Origin: a virus
Length of the DNA stretch: 64,000 bases
IMG/VR virus record: IMGVR_UViG_3300036861_000632
Span: 29,587 to 93,586 of that record
Reading direction: 5' to 3' (one strand)
Shown piece by piece: positions 21,222-55,100 of the stretch. The position numbers were made by a program, and so were the translations under genes. Under the pieces are notes generated by a model, which was given only the letters and a program-made list of their open reading frames with translations, was not told where the DNA came from and ran no database searches. Every line of letters begins with the position of its first letter. Positions within the stretch are counted from its first letter, which is position 1.

Positions 21222-22652
21222 TCAGATGTCACTAGGCACATCGTCGCTGGAGACTTTGGAGGCTGTCTCGAAGCGGGTGAAACTTTTGAGGAAGGTGAAA
21301 TGCAGGTCGCCACAGCAGCCATTTCTTTGCTTCGCTATCAGAAGGTTCACCTGCTCGGTGTCACTGTAAATGTCGCCTTCCTCTGCGTTTGGCCGGTACA
21401 GCAACCCTACCAAATCAGCATCCGCTTCAATCTGGCCAGATTGACGCAAATCGCTGAGTTTCGGCTTTGCGCCCGCCTCTCGTTTTTCGATCTCCCGGTT
21501 TAGCTGGCAGAGAACCACCACTGGAATATTGAGTTCCTTGGCGAGTCCCTTGATCCCGCGGGAGATGTCGGCGGTTTCCTGCTCCTTGTTCTCGGCACGC
21601 CGGTCTGTCGAGTGCAACAGTTGCAGGTAGTCAACGACGAGCAGCTTGATTCCGTGCTGCTGCTGCATTCTGCGGGCCTTGGCGCGAAGTTGCAGGATGG
21701 AAAGCCCGCTGGAGTCGTCGATGTAGATGGGTGATTCGCCGATCTTTCCGGCGGCGTTGGTGATCCGAGGAAAATCCCGCTCCGCGAGGAATCCTTCGCG
21801 CACGTTGCGCACGTTCACCCGGCCGCAGGAACAGATCATCCGCAGGACAAGTGAATCCGCGGTCATTTCGAGGCTGAAAATTCCGACGGGGAGCTTGAGT
21901 TCAAGGGCGACGTGCTCGGCGATATTCATTGCCATCGAAGTTTTTCCAAGACCGGGCCTCGCCGCTATCACAATCATGTCCCCCGGATGCAGTCCCGTCG
22001 TGATCTTGTCGAAATCGCTGAACCCGGTGGACAACCCCGTGACGGCGCCTTGGTTCTGGTGATACTTCTCAATCGTATCGACGGCCTTGTGGACGAGTAG
22101 TTTGATGGGCAGGGTGCCGGTGCCGCGATCGCGCTCCTGACTCAGCTTGAGCACATCGGTTTCAAATTCGTCCAGCACTTCGTCCGTCTCGCCCTGATAC
22201 TCGTAAGCCCGGCCCACGAACTCCGTGCATACGCGGATGGATTTTCGCAGGACGTACTTGTCCCATACGATGTCGAGATAGTATTCAATGGATGATGCCG
22301 ACGGCACGGCGTCGGGCAGGGCGGCGAGATACGAGAGGCCGCCGACGGATTCGAGTTGGTTCTTGTCCTTGAGGCGCTGCGAGAGGGTGACGAGATCAAT
22401 GGTGATCCGGGCGTCGAACATGGCGACCAGTTCATCGAAAACGGTTTGGTGTCGAAGGTCGTATAGCTGGTCGCTGTTCTTGATACGCTCGATGGCGATG
22501 GGCAGGGAGACGGCGGGGTCGAGCAAGAGGCAGCCGATCACGGCTTGTTCCGCCTCGGTTGACGATGGGGGAAGTCTTTCAAGGCGCGAGAGATCAATCG
22601 GATGATCCCCGCGTCGGCGCGAGGCTCTAAGGTCTGTGGGTTCGTCGCTCAT
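21222..22652 (-). CDS. dnaB: Replicative DNA helicase
   Basis: AEQAVIG N-domain, AARPGLGKT, FSLEM, VDYLQL, QLNR, DLRQSGQIEADAD, KQRNG. Confidence 0.97.
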   Translation of the reverse strand: MSDEPTDLRASRRRGDHPIDLSRLERLPPSSTEAEQAVIGCLLLDPAVSLPIAIERIKNSDQLYDLRHQTVFDELVAMFDARITIDLVTLSQRLKDKNQLESVGGLSYLAALPDAVPSASSIEYYLDIVWDKYVLRKSIRVCTEFVGRAYEYQGETDEVLDEFETDVLKLSQERDRGTGTLPIKLLVHKAVDTIEKYHQNQGAVTGLSTGFSDFDKITTGLHPGDMIVIAARPGLGKTSMAMNIAEHVALELKLPVGIFSLEMTADSLVLRMICSCGRVNVRNVREGFLAERDFPRITNAAGKIGESPIYIDDSSGLSILQLRAKARRMQQQHGIKLLVVDYLQLLHSTDRRAENKEQETADISRGIKGLAKELNIPVVVLCQLNREIEKREAGAKPKLSDLRQSGQIEADADLVGLLYRPNAEEGDIYSDTEQVNLLIAKQRNGCCGDLHFTFLKSFTRFETASKVSSDDVPSDI

Positions 22653-22906
22653 TGCTCTTTCCAATTCCTGATGGACAGGAGCCGCCCGGCACCGTCCATC
22701 GTGACCACCTTGGTCAAGCGCAGGGGTACATGCTGAAACGTCGGCAGGTTTTTGTTTCGTGGTCGTGGCACGTCGAAGGAGAACGTGACGTACCAGCGCC
22801 GCCGGGCGGTGTAAATTTCTTCCAAGAGCAGGCGGACGCCGGGGAATACATGCCGGCAGTGATGGCGGGCGAGACGAATGAACTTTTTGGATTCAGGGAT
22901 GGTCAT
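22649..22906 (-). CDS. Hypothetical protein
   Basis: ATGA-coupled on both sides. Confidence 0.55.
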   Translation of the reverse strand: MTIPESKKFIRLARHHCRHVFPGVRLLLEEIYTARRRWYVTFSFDVPRPRNKNLPTFQHVPLRLTKVVTMDGAGRLLSIRNWKEQ

Positions 22907-29235: not shown

Positions 29236-29820
29236 TTACTTGGCGGCGACAGGGGCGGCTGGCCCTGTCACGGGCGCGGCGGATGCAGGCGCGGGTCTGG
29301 CCGGCACGATCACCGGCGCGGGCCGTGCGACTGCTGGTTTCGGGCCAGGTTTTGCGCCTGCGGCCGTCCGCGTTTTCGGAATGGGCGGGCGGGTGTCAAG
29401 CGTTTCAAACCCGGAGACGACGAGGAAACCTTCGCCGGCTTCTTCGATCTTGAGCGGGCCATGTCCTTTGACGGTTTGAGCGACCGGGTTGTCGCCGGAA
29501 AACCGGAGGCGCAGGCTCTCGCCGGTTGTTTTATACAGCCGGCAGCCCGGCGCGTTGGCTTCCGCCTTTTGGAACAGGATCATATTTGCCGCCCTGTCGA
29601 TCCAAGTGGAGATGATTTGATCGGACGCGAATTCGGTCTTGCTGATGGCAGTGCCGCGAAACGTAAACGCGATCTTATCGTCCGATCTGCTCACGGATAC
29701 GGGGATGGAACTGATAGCCGGGTTTTCAACCAGTTCAAAGGATGGGCGTTTGGGGTGTGGGGTCATAATTTTACAGTGGGTTGGCGGACATTGATCGTGG
29801 TCGCAGGGCGGAAGGTTCAT
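29236..29820 (-). CDS. Hypothetical protein with Pro/Ala-rich tail
   Basis: Coupled ORF, 194 aa. Confidence 0.55.
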   Translation of the reverse strand: MNLPPCDHDQCPPTHCKIMTPHPKRPSFELVENPAISSIPVSVSRSDDKIAFTFRGTAISKTEFASDQIISTWIDRAANMILFQKAEANAPGCRLYKTTGESLRLRFSGDNPVAQTVKGHGPLKIEEAGEGFLVVSGFETLDTRPPIPKTRTAAGAKPGPKPAVARPAPVIVPARPAPASAAPVTGPAAPVAAK

Positions 29821-34169: not shown

Positions 34170-34799
34170 AAGCGATGCCGCTGTCTGTAATACGGAACCC
34201 TCCAAGTCGTCAACTTTTATTTTTGCAATGGCGAGAAGAGCCGCCGCCTGGATCGGGCCTCCGACCTCCAGCGCGCGTCCGGTTCCATTGAGGAACTGCG
34301 CGAAGAGACGCAGGTTAATATTTCCTCTCCGATTTCGGGTCTGGTTAAACCGCGCCCATCTTAACCAGATCAGAAAACCGGGGGTGTTCTTTAACCGACG
34401 GCGCCGGCCACCCATCCCCGCGGCGATTGCCAGGGCCGGAAGCCGAATCAGCCGGATAGACCGAACCGGACCCGCCGCGCTGTCTCACTTATGAGAACGC
34501 CACGCGACGGTCGAAAGAAATATTTCTCGCAGGCCAATTCTGCCACCCAATAGAGTCAACCACGAGCCGGGTTGAGACTGTCTGTACGCCTTGTCCGTGT
34601 CTCGATTGCCTTGAGCTTGCAAGCCGTCTCGTGCATGGCTTACACACGCCTAGCCTCCTTGCCAGTTTACGGTCGAAACGCTTGAACCCGCCTTACCGCT
34701 TGATTGACTCGTATAAGCCAATTCAAGGATCGCCGAGAGCGACTTGACCCCAAAATCCGTCATTCTGCAATTCTGTATTACGGGCCATTTGACCCTATC

Positions 34800-35102
34800 G
34801 AGGGGCTATCGACACCCTTCCGATCTGGTCCAAAACCCGAAAACCCAAAAACGCGCCAGTTGCCCCAGGAGCGATTTTGATTGCCAAGACCTACCTCGAC
34901 CTACCCCCCTCCCCGTTCAAAACGCCGCCAGCGCCCGGCTGGCGCGTAGCAATGCCCTGGAAAAAACCAGATCCCACTCCAGAAAACCCCAACTTCAAAA
35001 TCGACCTCTCCCTCTCCCTCCCCCCCACACCCCCCCTACTCTTACCCTCTCTGACTCAGGTACTGTTTCTGTTTCTGTACCAAAGGGTGTCGATAGCCCC
35101 TC
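34800..35102. repeat. Perfect 20-bp inverted repeat GAGGGGCTATCGACACCCTT flanking a strand-skewed tract (origin-like)
   Basis: Copies at 34800-34819 and, reverse-complemented, at 35083-35102. An AT-rich tract follows at ~35135-35205. Confidence 0.8.
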
Positions 35103-35579
35103 CCGGCAAAATGGGAAACTGTAGCTCTTGTACAACAAAAAGACATAGAAATAAATATAAATACTTCTGTTTGAAGAAGTAATAGAGGAAATAAAGAAAA
35201 AAGAGCAGAACGGGATGCGCCTACCCACAAGACTGTAAATCGTTGCAGGTCAACGCAAAAACCTCGCCCGGTCAAAAGGAATTAAACACAACATTTATTG
35301 TGTCATGATAATTCGGTCGTCGGTCGGCTCTGTGGCGACCAAAGCAGGCGGTCAAGCCGGGCGACCAAAGGCGGGTAAAGGCGGGTAAAGGGCACGGATC
35401 GGGAGAGGATCAATTTTGGCTTAAGCATTGACTATGCCAGTCGACGAAAGAAACATGGGTTGGATTTGATTCTACCCCTTCCACCTAACATTCAATTCGA
35501 CCGTTCCGCGTGATACCTGTCACACCTTGAGTCATTCTGACACACTGAGACACGAGTGGACTGTTGGTGTCTCACTTGG

Positions 35580-35595: not shown

Positions 35596-35882
35596 ATGGG
35601 TAGGTAGGACACTGAATGTCCTACTGGTCGGACATTGGATGTCCTACCGTGATAGCCTCGCCTAACAATTTTCGCTTCGCCTTTGAGACTGAATCTCAGT
35701 GGGGTATCGGCTTGAGGTTTCGCGCGATCCATGCGAGAAGTAACGCAGAACTGAGCGAGCCGGGCGGGCCTGCGGCGTCCGAATCCTCCAAGCGCGTAGC
35801 CCCGCCCGGATTCGCTCTTCTGCGTCCGGTCGAATTGTCAAAAACCCCAATAAAAGTGGGTCAAAATAAGTGAAGATTTCTC

Positions 35883-46265: not shown

Positions 46266-48213
46266 ATGAAAGTAGAAATCACCGAAAACATCGAGCGCGA
46301 AGGCGTGGAAATCCGGTTCGCTGGCCCCATCTCGCCCGCCATCTCGCACGTCCTGCGCGAGAATGGATTTCACTTCCACCCCGACCGCAAGAATCACGGC
46401 GCGGATAAACGCTGGTGGACCAAGCGCACGCCGCAACGGCTGACGTTCGCGCAGAACCTCGTCATCGCACTCGCCGATCAACCGCAGCAAGTGGCTGCCT
46501 GAATCTATGCTCCAAAACCTAAAGCAACTCCTCGCGTCTCCCGAAGACGTGCTCCATCTCACCTTCACGAAGACCGACGGTGAGAACTACCGGCTCAGAA
46601 TCCACGTTGGGTTTACCATCGCCGGAACATTGGCCGAAATCGAAGCCGCAGACCTGACGCCCATCACTGCCGCAGTTGAAGCCATGAAGAAGGCCCGGCC
46701 GGGGCAAGCCGTTCCTGCCCGCAAGAAGCCAGGCCCAAAGCCGAAGCCGGCGACCGCAACGCAACCCGAACTGTCAGCCGGCCCCGACGCCGAGAAGAAG
46801 AAAGCGGACGAAGCCGCTGCCGAGGCCAAGAAGAAGGCCGACAAAGAAGCCAGAGACAAGGCCGAGGAAGAAAAGCAGCGGGAGATTGCCGAGCTTCAGG
46901 AAAAGCTGAAGATCGCACTGGCGAAGAAGGTTGATTGAACAATTCCCCGCGTCGCCTTAGCCGGGCGGTCAGTGGTCATTCACTGGTGCAGTCACGGCTT
47001 CGGCGGCGCGGGCCTTCAATATGAAATACTTCATCCCCCAAGTCACATTCATCGGGCGCAATGATGACACTGAAAAGCTGTATGCCGCCGAAGATGCCGT
47101 CCGTGAAGCCGTGAAAGAGGCGGCTGATGAACTCGGTGACGTGCTCGGCATCAACCGGCAGGATTACTGGACGCGCACCATGCCGATCGCGCTCATGCAA
47201 CTGCTCGACACCTTCGAGAAAGCGGTATCGGAAGCGGCGGCCATCGGGCTGCTGGAATCTCGCGGTTACACCGTAATGGTGCGCGCCACTGAGTCGCTGG
47301 ACTTGCCGCCCAAACATCCCAGCGGCCATCACGAATTTGTGAGGGACGAATGAAAACCATACCCATGTCCCAATTCGGCCGCGATCACTGGTCGGTGTTC
47401 GCCTACATCGAAACGCTGTGCGTCGATAACAAAGGCGTTCCCGATCACGACCGGATGCGAACGAATCCCAAGACGCATCCGGGCTTGGTCGGCCCGCGCA
47501 TCGCAATAATGAAGCGCAGTTGGAAGCCGGAGTACGGCAGCAGGCTTCGCGGGCACGCCATAGACAAGCCGGTTCAACGACTCAACCACGACGATTGGGA
47601 TTGCGCCGATGACTTGGTAGCGGCGGGACTGATCGAATCAAACGGCACGGGCATCAATCCGTGGTTCACTCTGACCAAGACAGGGCTGGCGATCGCAGCC
47701 GCGCTTCGCCAGCACAAAGCCAGTGGCGGTTCTTTCAGCAACTTCACGCCATGATATGACCAACGACCGCACCGACACGACCACCATCGGCGTCTCCCGC
47801 AAGCAGACCATCCGGGGCGGCGAGGCTTACGTGCTCAAACGCTCTGACTGTTCCGACCGCAAGAACAACGCCGTGAATGACTACGTGCGCAACGCCGAGA
47901 TGTTCGCCACGATGCCGCGAATGCAAGTCGTCAGGGCGGCGTTTCTGCTGGTGGAAGAAGTCAAGCGATTGAGAAAATTATGCCCCTCATCTACATCCCC
48001 CAAAAGCACCTGAACACCGTTCTGGAAACGCTCAGACTGGACGCTGACTCCGGCAACTTCGATCCGAAGTTGCGCCGCCAGATCGCCGCCGCTGAAGCCT
48101 CAATCAAACTCGCCTGCCCGCAAGTCCGCATCGACGTTAGCGGCGGGGTCGCCTACGTCGGGCGATGCTCAAGAGGCGTGAGGGTAAAGATCGTTGACCA
48201 TGACAACCGTTAG
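46266..48213 (+). CDS. Run of 6 small hypothetical genes (46266-46502, 46507-46938, 47021-47353, 47350-47754, 47756-48013, 47980-48213)
   Basis: Co-oriented packed ORFs; 47350 has FGRDHWS...HDDWDC. Confidence 0.6.
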
Positions 48214-48234
48214 GAAGCCGAGGTAAGCCAGTCC

Positions 48235-48291
48235 GTCAACTCGGCGTCAACAAATGTCAACACCTGTTAACAAGCGTCAACACCTGTTAAA
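48235..48291 (+). repeat. Phased iteron-like array, GTYAAC x6
   Basis: Units start at 48235, 48246, 48256, 48266, 48276 and 48286 (10-11 bp period; last unit GTTAAA). Confidence 0.85.
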
Positions 48292-48346
48292 GACAGCAGG
48301 CCAGAATTGTATGGACAGTCCCTCCTTGTCCCGTAATGTCCCGCTC

Positions 48347-49051
48347 ATGGCATATACGAAGCTTTTCAGTTCCATTGTGACTTCAACCATCTGGACGGAG
48401 GACGACCGCACTCGAATTGTCTGGATCACCATGCTGGCGATAAGCGACAAAAACGGCGAGATTCAGGCCAGTGTCCCTGGATTGGCGCGCATCGCCGGAG
48501 TTCCCGTAGAAGCGTGTCGGGCGGCAATCGCCAAGTTCCTTTCCCCGGACCCGGACTCAAGAACCAAGGACGACGGGGGTAGGAGAATTGAGGAAATTGC
48601 AGGCGGTTGGGCGCTCTTGAACTTCCAAAAATACCGCGAGATGGCGTCGAAGGAAGAATCGAAAGCGTCGGAGGCTATTCGGAAGGCGAGGTATCGTGCG
48701 AAGGTGGCGAGAAATAATGTCCCGAAATGTCCCGTAGGTGTCCCGCCTGTGTCCACGGAGAACCCGGACATAGCAGACTTAGAATCAGACTCAAACCCAT
48801 CTTATTCAAAGCTTCAAAGGGAAAAGCTTGACCAAAATCCTGATTCCGAGGAGGCGGTTGTTGCCCAGTTCAAGCACCTTCTGCGCGACGCGATGCTCAA
48901 CGATGGCGGTAAGTGGCGGAACCGTTACCGCAAGAACCGCGGCAAGACGTTGCGCGTGCTGCGCGCGTGCCAGAGCGACCTCGTAGAAGGAAAGGTGCCG
49001 CGCTCATGGGCCGCCTACGCCGAAGACCTCTGGAAAAGATTCGCCGATTGA
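48347..49051 (+). CDS. Initiator-like wHTH protein, paralog A (internal TGTCCC repeats)
   Basis: YTKLFSSIVTSTIW...VWITMLA...ASVPGLA...PDPDSRT...GRRIE...GGW...Y; repeats at 48718-48756. Confidence 0.75.
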   Translation: MAYTKLFSSIVTSTIWTEDDRTRIVWITMLAISDKNGEIQASVPGLARIAGVPVEACRAAIAKFLSPDPDSRTKDDGGRRIEEIAGGWALLNFQKYREMASKEESKASEAIRKARYRAKVARNNVPKCPVGVPPVSTENPDIADLESDSNPSYSKLQREKLDQNPDSEEAVVAQFKHLLRDAMLNDGGKWRNRYRKNRGKTLRVLRACQSDLVEGKVPRSWAAYAEDLWKRFAD

Positions 49052-50789
49052 ATGCACGCCATCCACATACCCCTTTGAACCATCACATCTACGCCAAGCT
49101 CACCCCGCCGGAACAACTGGCCGCCACCAACCGGGCCATCTCCCAATGCGAGGAAAAGCTCACCCAGCTTTACGTTGATGAGGACATTGATCCTTCATTG
49201 AAGGACGATGAGAAGCACGCCGGCCAACTGCGCGGTGAAACCCTGTGCCTGAACATCCTCAAGTCGGAACGCGAACGGCTGGAGGCGGAGTATGCGAGAA
49301 GGAATTGAAACATGAACGCTGACACGCAACCCGATTTATTGGAGTGCCTTGTGGTGACTCTTGAACATGGCTGGCTGTGTATCCGTAACACCCACGGATG
49401 GTTGCTTTGGTCATCTAAGGCCACGGAAATAGACTGGCATCGTGGCGTGGTGATGGCTGACATCGCGGGCGAGCTTCGGAAGAACCAAGCCGCATGGCAG
49501 AAGGACCACGACGAAATGGAGGCTGCTAAATGAACCCAATCCTCAACCAGCTAATCCTCGAACTGAAAACCGCCAGCCAGCTCACCGCGGCTCCGACGAA
49601 GGGCGCCCGCAAGCGTTGGGCGAAGATCGTCGAAGCGGCCAGCGTGACGCTCGCGACCGAGCACAAGCTGACAATGGCTCTCACCACTGCGGCAACTCAC
49701 GTTCTCGGCCATGTCCACGTCGAATTGCACAAAGCGCGGGGTGACGAGTATGTGGCGCTTATCAAGCGAACCAAGTAGCATGTCTTTCGACAGCGCACTT
49801 TCAAGCGGCGAGCCGGTGCGCCGCGCTACAAATGCGACGATGGGTTGTGAGCCTGCGCGCTGTCGGTTGTGTTGTACGCAGTAATCGTCGTCCCGGCATA
49901 CTTTCTATGAAGCTCTACATCCTCAAACGCAACAACGGCGAGGCTGAATGCCTCGTCCAAGATCAGGCCAGCGGATTCAAGCGGCTGCTCGAAATCGGTC
50001 CATCGCTGAAGCTCGCCAGCCATAGTCCAACAGGATTCGCATTCGGTTATGCCGGTAGCGGACCCGCTCAACTGGCACTGGCCATCCTGCTCGACTACAC
50101 GGGCGACGAACAGCGCGCACTCCGCTGGCATCAGGACTTCAAGCAGGCATGGATTGCCGGCGCTCAAGCCGGGCAGATCATCGGTTCGACCGATCTCAAC
50201 GACTTTCTTTCGACGAGGGCATGAGCGGACTCAAAAACAATCGCATGAAACCAACCAAACTCGGAAAAGTAGAACGCACCAGCCGCGGCTTTGAAGTCGT
50301 GAACTTCACTGACCACTACGGAACAAAATGCAGCATCCAAGCGGGCAGTCTCGCCATCTATGCAAAGCCCGGCACATCCGCCGTGTGGCTTGGAGTGGAT
50401 GACGTTGAACCGAAAGTGATGGCGAGCCAGGCGGCGAGGTTCGGGATCAAGACGGAAAAAACAACAGGCTGGATACCGTATCCCATCCCGCCAGATGTCA
50501 GTCTGGCGACCCGAATGCACCTGAACCGCGAGCAAGTCGAAGCCCTGATTCAGACGCTTCAAAGCTGGCTGAAGCGGGACACGTTCAAATTGAAAACCGG
50601 CAAATGAAAAGACTTCTTGAATGGCTCCGCTTCAAGCTGACCGGCAAGCGCGACGAAGGCGCAATGGTCGTGCTGGAACATGACAGCCGCAAAAACACGT
50701 TCCGAATCCTGAGCGCCAAGACCGGCCCCTACAGCGAGGCGGACTGGCAGCAGGCACTCGGCCGCACAAAGCGATTGGAAGGCAAATAG
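49052..50789 (+). CDS. Six small genes (49052-49308, 49312-49533, 49530-49778, 49907-50224 DUF6166-like, 50245-50607, 50604-50789)
   Basis: 49907 has HSPTGFAFGYAGSGPAQLALAIL; 50245 has TSRGF...CSIQ..SLA. Confidence 0.6.
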
Positions 50790-50790
50790 C

Positions 50791-51168
50791 ATGGACCTGA
50801 TCTTATTCCCCACCAGCCCCAACGAATTCAAAGCGATCTTTCCAGACAACGCGGCGTGCGCGAAATATCTGGAGTCGCTTCGTTGGCCCAAAGGATTCAC
50901 CTGTCCGAACTGCGGGCTGCATGGCGAGCCATACCGCTTCAAAACCAGATCATCCGTGGTCCTGCGCTGCCGGCGTTGCCAAGTGAGCACGTCGTTGACG
51001 GCGGGAACGGTAATGCGATCAAGCCGTGTACCGCTAATCGTTTGGTTCCGCGCGGCCTATCTCACGACGACCAACCCCAATCAACCCATCGTTCAATTCC
51101 AGCGGCAGCTTCGACTGAAGCACTACCAGACGGCGCATCGGATGGCCAAGCTTCTGAGGGCGCGCTAA
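50791..51168 (+). pseudogene. IS1595-family transposase N-terminal Zn-ribbon/HTH only (no DDE domain)
   Basis: FPDNAACAKYLESLRWPKGFTCPNCG...CRRC...SLTAGT...YQTAHRM, then a stop. Confidence 0.8.
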
Positions 51169-51220
51169 TCAATATCAGATACCGCTTGACCTGTAGATAC
51201 GTTTTTCTACAGTAGAGCAC

Positions 51221-51823
51221 ATGAGTATGACCTTCACGAAGCTGTTTTCATCCATCACTGAGAGCACGATTTGGAGCGAGTCCTCTGACGTGCGCTTGGT
51301 CTGGATCACTATGCTGGCAATGGCTGACAGGCGCGGGCGGGTCTGGGCGAGCGTGCCAGGGCTTGCCAATCGGGCGCGCGTGCCATTGGCGGACTGCCGG
51401 GAAGCATTGGCAAAATTCCTCGGCCCTGACCCAGACAGCCGGACTCAGGCTTTTGAAGGCCGACGCATCGAAGTAATCGACGGCGGCTGGCGGCTGTTGA
51501 ACTATGAAAAGTATCGCCAGATTCGCGACGACGAATCCGTTCTGGAAGCCAAGCGAAGATATATCAACAACAGGCGGGCTGTAGAACGTGTAGATCGAGG
51601 TAGAGCCAATGCAGAGGCAGATTCAGAAGCAGAAGCAAAGGGGGAGTCCCCCGCTCTTTCTGCGACGGACAAGATAAGTTTGGAACGCGAGCGCAAGGAG
51701 TTGAAAGCGTCCTTGGCTGCCTCGGCCGGAGTTTCCTTCCGGTCCCCAGATGAAGTCGCAAAGCGCAAAGCCATGCGCGAGCGCATCGGCAAAATCGAGA
51801 AAGCCCTGCACATACCACTATGA
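51221..51823 (+). CDS. Initiator-like wHTH protein, paralog B (internal GTAGA repeats)
   Basis: FTKLFSSITESTIW...VWITMLA...ASVPGLA...PDPDSRT...GRRIE...GGW; EADSEAE linker. Confidence 0.75.
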   Translation: MSMTFTKLFSSITESTIWSESSDVRLVWITMLAMADRRGRVWASVPGLANRARVPLADCREALAKFLGPDPDSRTQAFEGRRIEVIDGGWRLLNYEKYRQIRDDESVLEAKRRYINNRRAVERVDRGRANAEADSEAEAKGESPALSATDKISLERERKELKASLAASAGVSFRSPDEVAKRKAMRERIGKIEKALHIPL

Positions 51824-52119
51824 ACAAAACCCAAATCCCAAACGACAAACTCCAGCAAGACATCGCTTTCCTGCTCAAGCGTGCGATGAAGGCCGGCTAT
51901 TGGTCTTCGGAAACCAAGGACCGCGATGTTGGAATGAGCAGCAACTCAATCGTCGCCATTGCCTATGGAGCACCGCTGAAAAATCAAGTCTTGCCGGCGG
52001 ACAAATCCGACTTCGCAGCCTGCGAAGCAATGTGGGAACAATTGCCACCGCACAGGAAAACTTTTACCGCCAAACAGGCGATGGCCTGTGCCTGCAATGC
52101 AATTAACGCCGCTGTATGA
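51820..52119 (+). CDS. Hypothetical protein
   Basis: ATGA-coupled on both sides. Confidence 0.65.
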   Translation: MNKTQIPNDKLQQDIAFLLKRAMKAGYWSSETKDRDVGMSSNSIVAIAYGAPLKNQVLPADKSDFAACEAMWEQLPPHRKTFTAKQAMACACNAINAAV

Positions 52120-55100
52120 ACCGCACCCAAATCCCCAACCAAATCCTGCAAGAGCACCTTGAGGCGTCAACGAATGCGTTAGAAAAAGGCGTAGCGCAAT
52201 TCGAGACTCCGCTTGAGTGGGCTGGCCCAATGGGCATTCCACTCCCGACGCACCGGCCAACGCTGATTGATCTGAATTGCGGCCACGGGCAACTGCTTCA
52301 AGGCATCGCCAACCACACGACCAAGCATCTGCTCGGCGTCGATATTGACCCGTGCCATCTGGTCAAGGCCGACCGGCCCGACCGAGACGACCGCATTCAG
52401 CGCGTCAAGATCAACGGCGACGTGACGCTCGTGGCCGATCTCTTTCGGAAGATCAACCTCGAAGGCGACCTATTCGTGCTCAATCCGCCGTGGGATTTGC
52501 ACTTCCATCGGGACCGCCTCAAGTTCCTTTTTCAAAGCGACTGTGAAGCGGTCGCCGCCGCCTTCAACGGAATCGACCCCCGGCTGGGCCGCGAGCAAAT
52601 CGACAGCACAATTGCGATGCTCATGCTCGCGCTGAACTTCTCATCCAGTCATGGCGAGGGCGTGCTCGTGGCGAACGAGGCCACGCTGCAACGCCTCATC
52701 TTCCGCAAGGGCGCTCCGCATGGCGCCCTGGCCGATCATGTCTGGGCGCATCTGGTCATCGCTGGCAATCCCATGACCGGCAACGCCCGCGCCGAATTTG
52801 AGGACGGATTCCAGACGGGCGTGATTTACTTCGCCCGGAGCCACCTGTCCGGGTGCGCGCCGGAAACCCTCATGCCGCCGGCCACCGATCTCGCGTCCTT
52901 CCGCAAGCAGGCGATGAACCTGAACCGCCTGTCGAATCGCGACGGGACACAGGTTCACAACGAGTATCAAATCCACACGGACGCGACGGGGCAGTTTGAG
53001 GGCGTCCGCGAGGAATGGGCGGAGATTCAAGGCAAGCGGCAAAAGCGGTTCAACATCTGGTTGGATGACCTTGGGATGATCCGCACGTATCTGTCGCGGT
53101 TTGACGATGCGGTGGCGGATAAGAATGAGGCGAAGGCGCTCTTTAGTCTGACGGATCAGAAACCGATGAATTTAGTGATGCAGGTTGCATCACGGGCCGC
53201 GCTCATGCGGGCGGTCAACGGAGGACTCTGGAAGGTAAGTCCTGAGTTGCCCGCCAAAGTGGCCGAGGCGATGGACGCCTACAACGCCATCCGCGCGCCG
53301 CTGTATCCGATGCCGGAGATCATGCGCTTGGCGTACGTTGATGAACAGTCGTTCATCAAGTGCATCAAGGATGTCGAGGTTCCCGCGCCGGACCTCGACG
53401 CGGACAGCCGCAAGCGGTTGCTGGCCTTCATCCATGCGCCGTCGAGTGAGACTTGGGAAGAAATCGCGCACCGCAGGTTGACGGGCGACACGGCATGGCG
53501 GATCGCCAATCGTCTTGATGCGAAATTCCGCGAAGCGTCGCCCTTGGCCGGAATCGGCAACGGCAGAGACGGCCTGCCGATTCGCGACAAGCCAGCCCGC
53601 GCGGATGGTGGGTGGGCTGTCGTGCCAGACACGAAAGTCTTCGACGCCTTTCTCGACAAGAAGGTTTTATTCGTGGCCGGCAAACGCTACGCCGTTTCCA
53701 GTCAGACCGTCATGGTCGAGCGCAAGGCGATGAAGCCGAATGCGGCCGGCGGTGACGATGAGGTGCTTTTGAATGGTCAGGAGCTTGCCATTTTAATCGA
53801 GGACGAATGCGGCAAGAAGCGGTGCTTCATGGACCGCCAGCACTTCGCCGCCAACGCCATCAAATCGGACACGGGCGGATGGCACGCCGAATCGGTGGAC
53901 CCGGACCTATCGTTGCAGGATTTGGTTGAAGGCTTTGAGATTCCCGACGTGCCCGACGTGGCCAAGTGTCACCCGGAAAAATACGCCGCCCATCTGGCCG
54001 CGCTTGAAGACATCGAGCGGTATCTCCCGCCGACGTTTCGCTTCAAGCAATTCCAACGCGAGGACGTGGCGCGAGGGGCCATCCATCCGGGGTGCATCTT
54101 CGGCCTTGATCCCGGCCTTGGCAAAACGATATGCGGGATCGCGCTCGCCTTGCTCAAGGTGGGCCATGACGCGCTCGTGCCGAAGAAGCCCTGCCTCATC
54201 GTCGCGCCCGGCAATTTGCACGCGCAGATGCTCGACGCTTACGCGAAGCTGAACATCCCCGTCACGCCTCTGGACTGTCAGGAAACCTACCGCACCTTCT
54301 GGCCGCTCAAACCCGGCTTCTATCTCACGAGCTTTATGCAACTGGCCCGCAACAAGGTGTTGAAGCTGCCGGAAGTGAACCACGAGACGACGCTGGCCGA
54401 TCTGGCGGAGGTCATGGTCGATCTCGGCATCAATCTGGCGGATGCGCAGAAGATGCACAAAGAGCAAACCGTCAAGAAGGCGGATCGCCTGACCCTCATG
54501 CAGTGCATCGTCGAGTTGTGCCGGGCGACGATCATCAAGATCGGCGAGGGTGTGGGCGAGGAAGTCAACGGCGTGCGCTGCGTCTATTCGCCGTCGCTGG
54601 CCGAACTCACCCGCGGCGTATTCGAGTGCGTCGTCATTGATGAGGGCACCAAGATCAAGGGCGAAGATTCACAGATCGGCGTCGGGTGCCGGTTGATGGA
54701 CCCGCCGTTCCGATTCGTGCTCACCGGCACGCCGATCAAGAACCGGCTCAAGGATTTGTTTTGGCTCATGTGGTGGGCCTGTAGCGGCAAGGTTGAAGCC
54801 ACGCCGCGCTTTCCCTACGGCGGCACCGCCGAGGAACAGGACCGTTACGAGGCCACGTTCGCCGTGTGCGAGCGCAATCTGACGAAGGAACGCGCCATGA
54901 ACGGCGGCCGGCTCAAGGAACAACCGACTGTCACCCGGCGGCGCGGCAAGTGGCGCGGACGCGGCAAGGTCACGCCGGAAGTGTGCAACATCCATCTGTG
55001 CTGGAAACTCAATGCGCCGAACCTGCTGCGCCGTCGCATGGAAGACATCGGGCAGGATGTGGTTCGCCGGATCACCAAGCCGATCTGGTGCCCGATGGGT

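Follow-up and report, generated by a model that had tools for sequence, protein, structure and literature searches.

The stretch of viral DNA analysed here, called the window, covers positions 29,587 to 93,586 of record IMGVR_UViG_3300036861_000632 and is the last 64 kb of this complete 93,586-bp virus record. It carries on its plus strand two initiator-like cassettes, A and B, each composed of a gene, an upstream promoter-like region and short DNA repeats that occur both over the promoter and inside the gene (positions are those of the window, unless another locus is named). Gene A (48347-49051) encodes 234 aa and gene B (51221-51823) 200 aa; the two proteins are identical at 63 of 103 N-terminal residues (61%, BLASTP E = 8e-44) and have unrelated C-termini, in agreement with the paralogy put forward by the original prediction, which was made from the sequence alone. 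The repeats that it listed in both cassettes, in promoter and gene, are all present and form near-unique clusters genome-wide. AlphaFold2 (AF2) models built on family alignments, a check proposed together with the original prediction, give with high confidence the same N-terminal module for both proteins, i.e. a winged helix followed by a helix of ~30 residues. In protein A, the winged helix spans aa 1-92, the long basic helix aa 93-123 and a disordered linker aa 124-167, ahead of a short helical C-terminus; in protein B, the winged helix is followed by a long basic helix (aa 95-128), a disordered linker and a coiled-coil-like C-terminus of ~60 aa. In the models, the disordered linker lies exactly where the in-gene repeats, hereafter iterons, are encoded, and a short helical tail follows it.

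Cassettes A and B and the orphan array

The promoter-like region of cassette A and its operator sites (48312-48342) read TGGACA-N16-TAATGT-N7-ATG, with the -35 hexamer at 48312-17 and the -10 hexamer at 48334-39. The layout is as originally described, but the -10 hexamer is weak (three of six matches) and falls below the threshold of the promoter scanner. GTCCC starts at 48318, 48328 and 48338 over this region, in a 10-bp phase (as TGTCCC at 48327 and 48337), and the palindrome GGACAGTCC at 48313-21 precedes these copies. A-type homologues display TTGTCCC three times over the same promoter region and keep TTGAC(T)...TAATGT. A long open reading frame from 48254 was ruled out as gene A because homologues start at MAYTKLF.

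Inside gene A, the iterons occupy 48718-48770 and consist of TGTCCC at 48718, 48728 and 48739 and TGTCC at 48750 (spacings of 10, 11 and 11 bp), distributed over three reading frames, with an inverted GGACA at 48766. Clusters of at least three GTCCC per 60 nt occur only at these two A sites in the 93,586-bp genome, for ~0.16 clusters expected. Directly 3' of the iterons lies an AT-rich stretch of 80 bp (48770-48850), whose GC content of 36-38% is below the first percentile of the window. The sole other TGTCC cluster of the 93.6-kb genome is formed by two 21-bp palindromes, (T)AGGACA-N5-TGTCCTA, at 35604-35647 in a divergent early control region; they contain the A-like half-site TGTCC and may therefore be an extra target of protein A, or possibly the site of another repressor.

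Cassette B follows the same plan with a different motif. Its promoter and operator (51186-51216) read TTGACC-N16-TACAGT-N7-ATG, with the -35 at 51186-91 and the -10 at 51208-13; with nine of 12 matches, this promoter is the sole sigma-70-like match of the scanner in 47900-52200, so that here the layout originally described is supported. The operator is an inverted repeat, CTGTAGA-N8-TCTACAG (51191-51212), with a third GTAGA at 51212, and the arrangement GTAGA-N8/9-TCTAC-N-GTAGA is common to many GTAGA-type homologues. The in-gene iterons (51580-51604) are three copies of (T)GTAGA at 51581, 51590 and 51600, spaced by 9 and 10 bp and lying in two reading frames. For GTAGA, at least three copies per 60 nt are found, besides the two B sites, only at a single unphased position outside the window (~0.05 clusters expected in the whole genome). 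After the iterons comes a tract of CAGA hexamers at 51611-51634 (GCAGAG, GCAGAT, TCAGAA and GCAGAA), read as the peptide AEADSEAE, with a tract score of 4 that is typical of the family described below. Gene callers place the start of B at 51227 (198 aa) instead of the 51221 of the original prediction; the latter is plausible because most homologues begin with MS(M/V/L)TFTKLF. In both genes, the internal array starts just past the part encoding the conserved N-terminus, ~390-400 bp from the promoter array.

A third array, referred to as the orphan array, is found directly upstream of cassette A on the plus strand (48235-48292) and contains six GTYAAC units in a 10-11 bp phase. It is separated by a 31-bp gap from the A operator sites, and its six units and the three GTCCC of A keep one single 10-11 bp phase. 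No protein cognate to a GTCAAC array is encoded in the 93.6-kb genome; in L051, L062, L063 and L110, other members of the family, GTCAAC(A) is the motif of the in-gene iterons. The array is ~90% identical over ~45 nt to one located upstream of a GTAGA-type initiator in locus L009 (2900-2960). A second upstream array as a general feature of the family was considered and rejected, only the window and L009 (perhaps L017) having one.

Among the neighbouring genes, the one at 50221-50607, between A and B, is homologous to an L009 gene (2415-2756) that lies upstream of the array and initiator of that locus, which hints that the A-to-B segment arose through rearrangement or insertion. Directly upstream of the B promoter, 50791-51168 encodes a 125-aa protein in which only an IS1595-type transposase zinc ribbon is recognized (E = 2e-13). 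Downstream of B, a gene encoding 99 aa (51820-52119) and the gene of a 1,300-aa SNF2-type helicase (from 52116) have near-identical starts, MNKTQIPN and MNRTQIPN, respectively.

Iterons, CAGA tract and basic helix across the family

Occurrences of the N-domain were counted as clusters at 50% identity, using a profile of the A and B N-domains; a cut-off of E ≤ 1e-3 gave 11,128 clusters, and the stricter E ≤ 1e-10 left 7,874. In every case the domain is N-terminal, in proteins of 190-380 aa; in one 227-aa chain (P0254), two stretches match it. Relatives are absent from 50,697 GenBank phage records (tblastn) and are found in IMG/VR contigs of about 40 kb and in genomes or metagenome-assembled genomes (MAGs) labelled Verrucomicrobiota, Acidobacteriota, Lysobacter, Solimonas, Planctomycetota and others. 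All 40 other virus records contain exactly one copy (completeness of 90% or more for 19 of these records). Two copies were otherwise seen only at locus L099, from a contig labelled as a Pirellulales MAG, where a 127-aa protein with N-domain and basic helix (243-626), devoid of iterons and tail, is encoded immediately 5' of a full-length TGTCCC-type initiator (840-1733).

No Pfam model covers the N-domain, and searches of Pfam, NCBIfam and PHROGs gave nothing significant for A or B, the N-domains alone having marginal PHROGs matches (E = 0.01-0.03); a sequence-profile search of the PDB gave nothing relevant. Domain by domain, HTH_36 (PF13730) reaches E = 0.23 with B (11.7 bits for a cut-off of 25) and E = 2e-4 with two of 120 family members, Rep_3 and Phg_2220_C (PF09524/TIGR02220) do not match A or B in Pfam, and Phage_rep_O (PF04492) matches neither A, B nor any of the 120 members at E ≤ 1e-3. 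Phage_rep_org_N (PF09681) also gives no Pfam match; the ESM Atlas places its clusters nearby (feature score of 0.93, with TM scores of 0.59-0.63 over ~100 residues).

The repeats were then compared in a sample of 120 non-redundant loci, iterons being defined as at least three copies of a 5-mer at a spacing of 9-12 bp, or multiples thereof, in linker-coding DNA. Phased in-gene iterons are present in 96 of the 120 loci, with copies in at least two reading frames in 92 of these 96. The dominant spacings are 10 (95 cases), 11 (50) and 9 bp (47), and multiples of three make up 31%. Despite their diversity, the motifs have the common form GT-N3(-C); among them are GTAGA, GTGGACA, GTCCGAC, TGTCCC, GTCAACA, GTCACGC, GTAACGC, GTCGAC, GTCAGC and GTTGACA. 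Since the copies change frame and 10-11 bp spacing dominates, the repeats of the family are helically phased DNA repeats rather than peptide repeats.

Beyond the iterons there is usually a run of NCAGAW hexamers, the CAGA tract, which is translated as AEAEAE, and a tract score of at least 3 is reached in 75 of 120 loci, compared to none of 261 control windows. Codon use in the tract differs strongly from that in the rest of the same genes: alanine is encoded by GCA in 99% of cases (269 codons) vs. 20% elsewhere, aspartate by GAT in 91% vs. 36%, threonine by ACA in 83% vs. 20% and serine by TCA in 75% vs. 15%. This skew is direct evidence that the tract is selected at the DNA level, strongly enough to fix GCA for alanine, and defines a new conserved DNA element beside the variable iterons. 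A similar CAGA-hexamer tract is found elsewhere in the window (region 34796-35102), on the minus strand at 35060-35082, which reads ACAGAAACAGAAACAG and has no initiator gene attached; next to it are an inverted repeat of 20 bp (34800/35083) and, at 35135-35205, a stretch rich in AT.

Promoter and in-gene motifs co-vary. Over the 130 nt upstream of the genes, coverage by the gene's own 5-mer is 11.5 nt, compared to 5.6 ± 0.56 nt when the pairing is permuted (10,000 permutations, p < 1e-4) and to 5.4 nt in control windows of the same loci. A clean GTNNN class could be assigned to 65 loci; in 34 of them, for ~1.7 expected, at least two cognate copies are found upstream, and in 19 the cognate motif is the unique commonest upstream GTNNN. 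The switch of motif is visible within one N-domain clade, with GTCGA-N9-TCGAC in L015, GTGGAC-N7/8-GTCCAC in L037 and L038, TGGACA/GTCCA in L079, GTAAC in L059 and three TTGTCCC in A-type loci. The original prediction was to be abandoned if homologues lacked this co-variation, which is present. Family promoters have a -10-like hexamer mostly 4-12 nt from the start codon and no Shine-Dalgarno sequence, making leaderless or near-leaderless mRNAs plausible, as far as sequence can indicate.

The iteron class is also related to the protein sequence. The protein positions with the highest mutual information with iteron class are 109, 113 and 112, which belong to the basic half of the long helix. In a nearest-neighbour prediction of iteron class over 58 cases, helix 99-118 alone gives 48 correct assignments, compared to 23 for the whole winged helix, 17 for the classical recognition helix (residues 53-68) and 10 for the C-terminal region, which is encoded equally near the iterons, on their other side, and yet predicts poorly. 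The classical recognition helix, with its 17 of 58, was rejected as the specificity determinant. Hence, the originally expected co-variation with recognition-helix residues holds in that protein residues do track the motif, but they are located in the basic helix that follows the winged helix. The same pairs of helix motif and iteron recur on different N-domain backgrounds (RRAYK(T/A)E with GTGGAC, DERREYL with GTCAAC, RKARYR with GTCCC), and a minimal pair, L054 (GTGGACA, RRAYKTEW) and L069 (GTTGACA, RKEYQREW), differs by one base and a few helix residues. A and B both fit their own helix/iteron classes.

Replication context and characterized systems

Replication is the context in which the family occurs. 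The PHROGs matched by C-termini of homologues are annotated as replication initiation protein, replication initiation O-like, DnaD-like helicase loader and primosomal protein, the O-like matches arising mostly from the linker and C-terminus, and P0191, which shares 49% identity with A, aligns colinearly with phrog_345 from residue 3 to residue 256. Phg_2220_C or DnaT domains are found in a few members. Over 101 loci, the next gene downstream encodes DnaB in 26, an IstB/DnaC-like protein in five and a primase in two or three, DnaB and DnaC thus totalling 31 of 101, and in L009 the initiator gene overlaps dnaB. Together with the presence of one copy per genome, these PHROGs matches and neighbours support the initiator reading of the original prediction.

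An initiator gene that contains its own origin, as for lambda O and SPP1 G38P, and the autorepression of Rep proteins are textbook knowledge. In lambda, the iterons of the origin lie mid-gene in O, in the part coding for the linker, and are followed by a strand-biased, easily opened stretch. The mid-gene location of the iterons in linker-coding DNA is the same here, and some homologues match O-like PHROGs; the C-terminal part of lambda O recruits the helicase loader, as the C-terminal module of the family may do. The two systems differ in that A and B have no Phage_rep_O match and that here the N-domain is conserved and the C-terminus variable. The lambda iterons are ~19-bp palindromes bound by dimers, and lambda O is not known to act as a repressor of its own promoter.

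SPP1 offers an equally close characterized analogue, so that the original comparison with lambda O-type initiators stands for the layout and has to be refined by the addition of G38P/oriL. G38P has an N-domain without Pfam match followed by Phg_2220_C, a domain shared with some family members and missing from A and B. In SPP1, gp38 binds to oriL direct repeats located within gene 38, beside an AT-rich DNA unwinding element (DUE), and the phage has a second origin, oriR (PMC6316719). The family resembles it by the succession of an N-terminal domain (origin-binding in G38P), linker DNA with direct repeats and an unwinding element, and a C-terminal module; A, with four iterons and then a stretch of GC ~36%, and B, with three iterons and then the CAGA tract, show this layout at the sequence level. 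A helicase loader or helicase is encoded downstream in many family loci, and two origin-like sites per genome are likewise found in SPP1 (PMC6316719). In contrast, SPP1 uses one initiator for two origins, whereas the present phage has two initiators, each with its own motif, and an orphan array in addition; the iterons of the family are 5-7 nt on a 10-11 bp phase, and most members have a CAGA-hexamer tract instead of an AT-rich DUE. An alignment (hhalign) of a 78-sequence N-domain profile with a 48-sequence G38P profile gave a probability of 33% and E = 4.7e-4 over 95 colinear columns with shared landmarks.

The Rep proteins of iteron plasmids (P1 RepA, F RepE, pSC101 RepA, R6K pi) use direct-repeat iterons for initiation, while Rep half-sites arranged over the rep promoter, either in an array or as an inverted repeat, give autorepression. 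P1 has arrays, incC and incA, on both sides of, or around, the rep gene, and the iteron type defines incompatibility. The resemblance to A and B lies in the direct-repeat iterons, the arrays around the gene and the same half-site over the gene's own promoter, the apparent cognate half-sites of both cassettes overlapping -35 and -10 as in the autorepression layout of these plasmids. Rep_3 proteins are made of two winged-helix domains; this WH1-WH2 tandem is not seen in the AF2 models, which predict one winged helix plus a long basic helix, and the origin inside the coding sequence, the phage context and the lack of a Rep_3 match further distinguish A and B.

Proposed mechanism and alternatives

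We consider it likely that A and B belong, as two diverged copies, to a very large and as yet unnamed family of phage initiators (replisome organizers) with an in-gene origin and Rep-like autorepression, and that they form two orthogonal units in one genome. The proteins would be composed of a DNA-binding module at the N-terminus, then a linker, and lastly an exchangeable C-terminal module recruiting the helicase or its loader. The linker-coding DNA would be the origin, with three to ten short iterons on one face of the helix and then an unwinding or loading element: the protein would bind its own phased in-gene iterons, and opening or loading would take place at the adjacent element, the CAGA tract in B and most relatives and the 80-bp AT-rich stretch in A. 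The same half-site lies over the gene's own -35 and -10 (apparently an inverted repeat with one more direct copy in B, and phased direct copies preceded by a palindrome in A), so that the protein should shut off, and thereby limit, its own synthesis like the Rep proteins of iteron plasmids. Transcription from this promoter would cross the origin. The main determinant of specificity for TGTCCC or GTAGA would be the long helix that comes after the winged-helix domain, in its basic half; given the distinct helices and motifs, no cross-talk between A and B is expected, and both cassettes would be active as independent initiator/origin units.

Several observations weigh against this mechanism. The CAGA-hexamer tract is degenerate in A (GCAGAC, TTAGAA, TCAGAC and TCAAAC; score of 1), the canonical tract being absent, whereas P0123, the closest A homologue, retains HIAEAEAEA at this place. 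Phage dnaB lies at 21222-22664 on the minus strand, ~27 kb from the cassettes, a distance already pointed out in the original prediction; neither cassette adjoins it, and the adjacent helicase loader or DnaB helicase of the SPP1 type is not present beside A or B in the window. The cumulative GC skew of the whole 93.6-kb genome gives no origin signal. No known helicase-recruiting domain was recognized in the C-terminus of A or B with Pfam, NCBIfam or PHROGs, and Foldseek and VIA-align return only generic winged-helix matches (best Z of 7.7, with 6.2 for DnaD-NTD). Cognate promoter sites are missing in about half of the family loci, the genes of which are probably inside operons. The link between helix and iteron is a correlation, to which the physical linkage of two adjacent DNA segments may contribute, and the homology of the N-domain to G38P is no more than suggestive.

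An alternative, which we regard as possible but unlikely, is that only one cassette is the working replicon, B on the basis of tract quality, while the other cassette and the orphan GTYAAC array make up an incompatibility, interference or timing module that titrates or mis-fires the initiator of a competing phage or prophage, or switches the mode of replication. Two copies are indeed exceptional in this family, A has lost the tract that its closest homologue keeps, neither C-terminus has a recognized recruiting domain, and the third-type GTCAAC array is foreign, its cognate initiators existing in other phages and not here. There is also a precedent, as a plasmid-borne lambda fragment blocks rep-lambda phages, which requires oop transcription and iterons ITN3-4 of ori-lambda (PMC3349717). 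However, the reading frame of A is intact, its operator sites and four phased iterons are kept, and an AT-rich stretch occupies the place of an unwinding element; no competitor or target of such a module was identified, and in SPP1 both origins of one phage can serve its own replication (PMC6316719).

It is improbable that A and B are instead autoregulated winged-helix transcription regulators, with in-gene sites acting as roadblocks, sponges or looping partners and no origin function. The closest fold matches are CRP/FNR and MarR-type regulators, which does not discriminate between regulator and initiator, the operators overlap -35 and -10 in both cassettes, the TGTCC palindromes at 35604-35647 could be further A targets, and the missing recruiting domain would fit. 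The replication context of the family, with its PHROGs matches, DnaB/DnaC neighbours and G38P-type C-domains, argues against a regulator, and so do the CAGA tract kept at the DNA level beside the iterons and the single copy per genome. Finally, the idea that the repeats are by-products of repeated peptides or chance, suggested by the repetitive look of the linker peptides (VE/VD/GR; VP/CP/VP), was rejected on reading frames and spacing, and is further contradicted by the uniqueness of the phased clusters in the genome and by the recurrence of the same motif in non-coding promoters.

Returning to the two-initiator reading, the branch described here appears to be new within the known G38P/lambda O-like kind, the novelty residing in the helix-based motif code, in the CAGA tract and, in this genome, in two orthogonal units plus an orphan array. 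A bolder extension, which we put forward only tentatively and hold to be rather doubtful, is that a basic helix of ~20 residues reads an iteron of 5-7 nt by a simple, evolvable code, as suggested by single-base motif changes that track few residue changes (L054 and L069), that this code separates phages into many incompatibility groups, that the second cassette and the GTCAAC array are weapons or decoys and not spare origins, and that the CAGA tract is a new loading or unwinding element. If true, incompatibility groups would span phages of uncultured Verrucomicrobiota, Acidobacteriota, Planctomycetota and Proteobacteria, and the CAGA-hexamer tract would be read with a 3- or 6-nt periodicity.

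The family is among the larger unannotated families of phage proteins, and its annotation is now possible. In the many protein-site pairs that occur naturally, a short DNA word is linked to one helix, which offers a testable recognition rule, while a single genome with two apparently orthogonal units and an orphan array is a rare case for testing replicon incompatibility or interference between phages. With the origin inside the initiator gene, its position would be readable directly from the sequence in thousands of uncultured phages and prophages.

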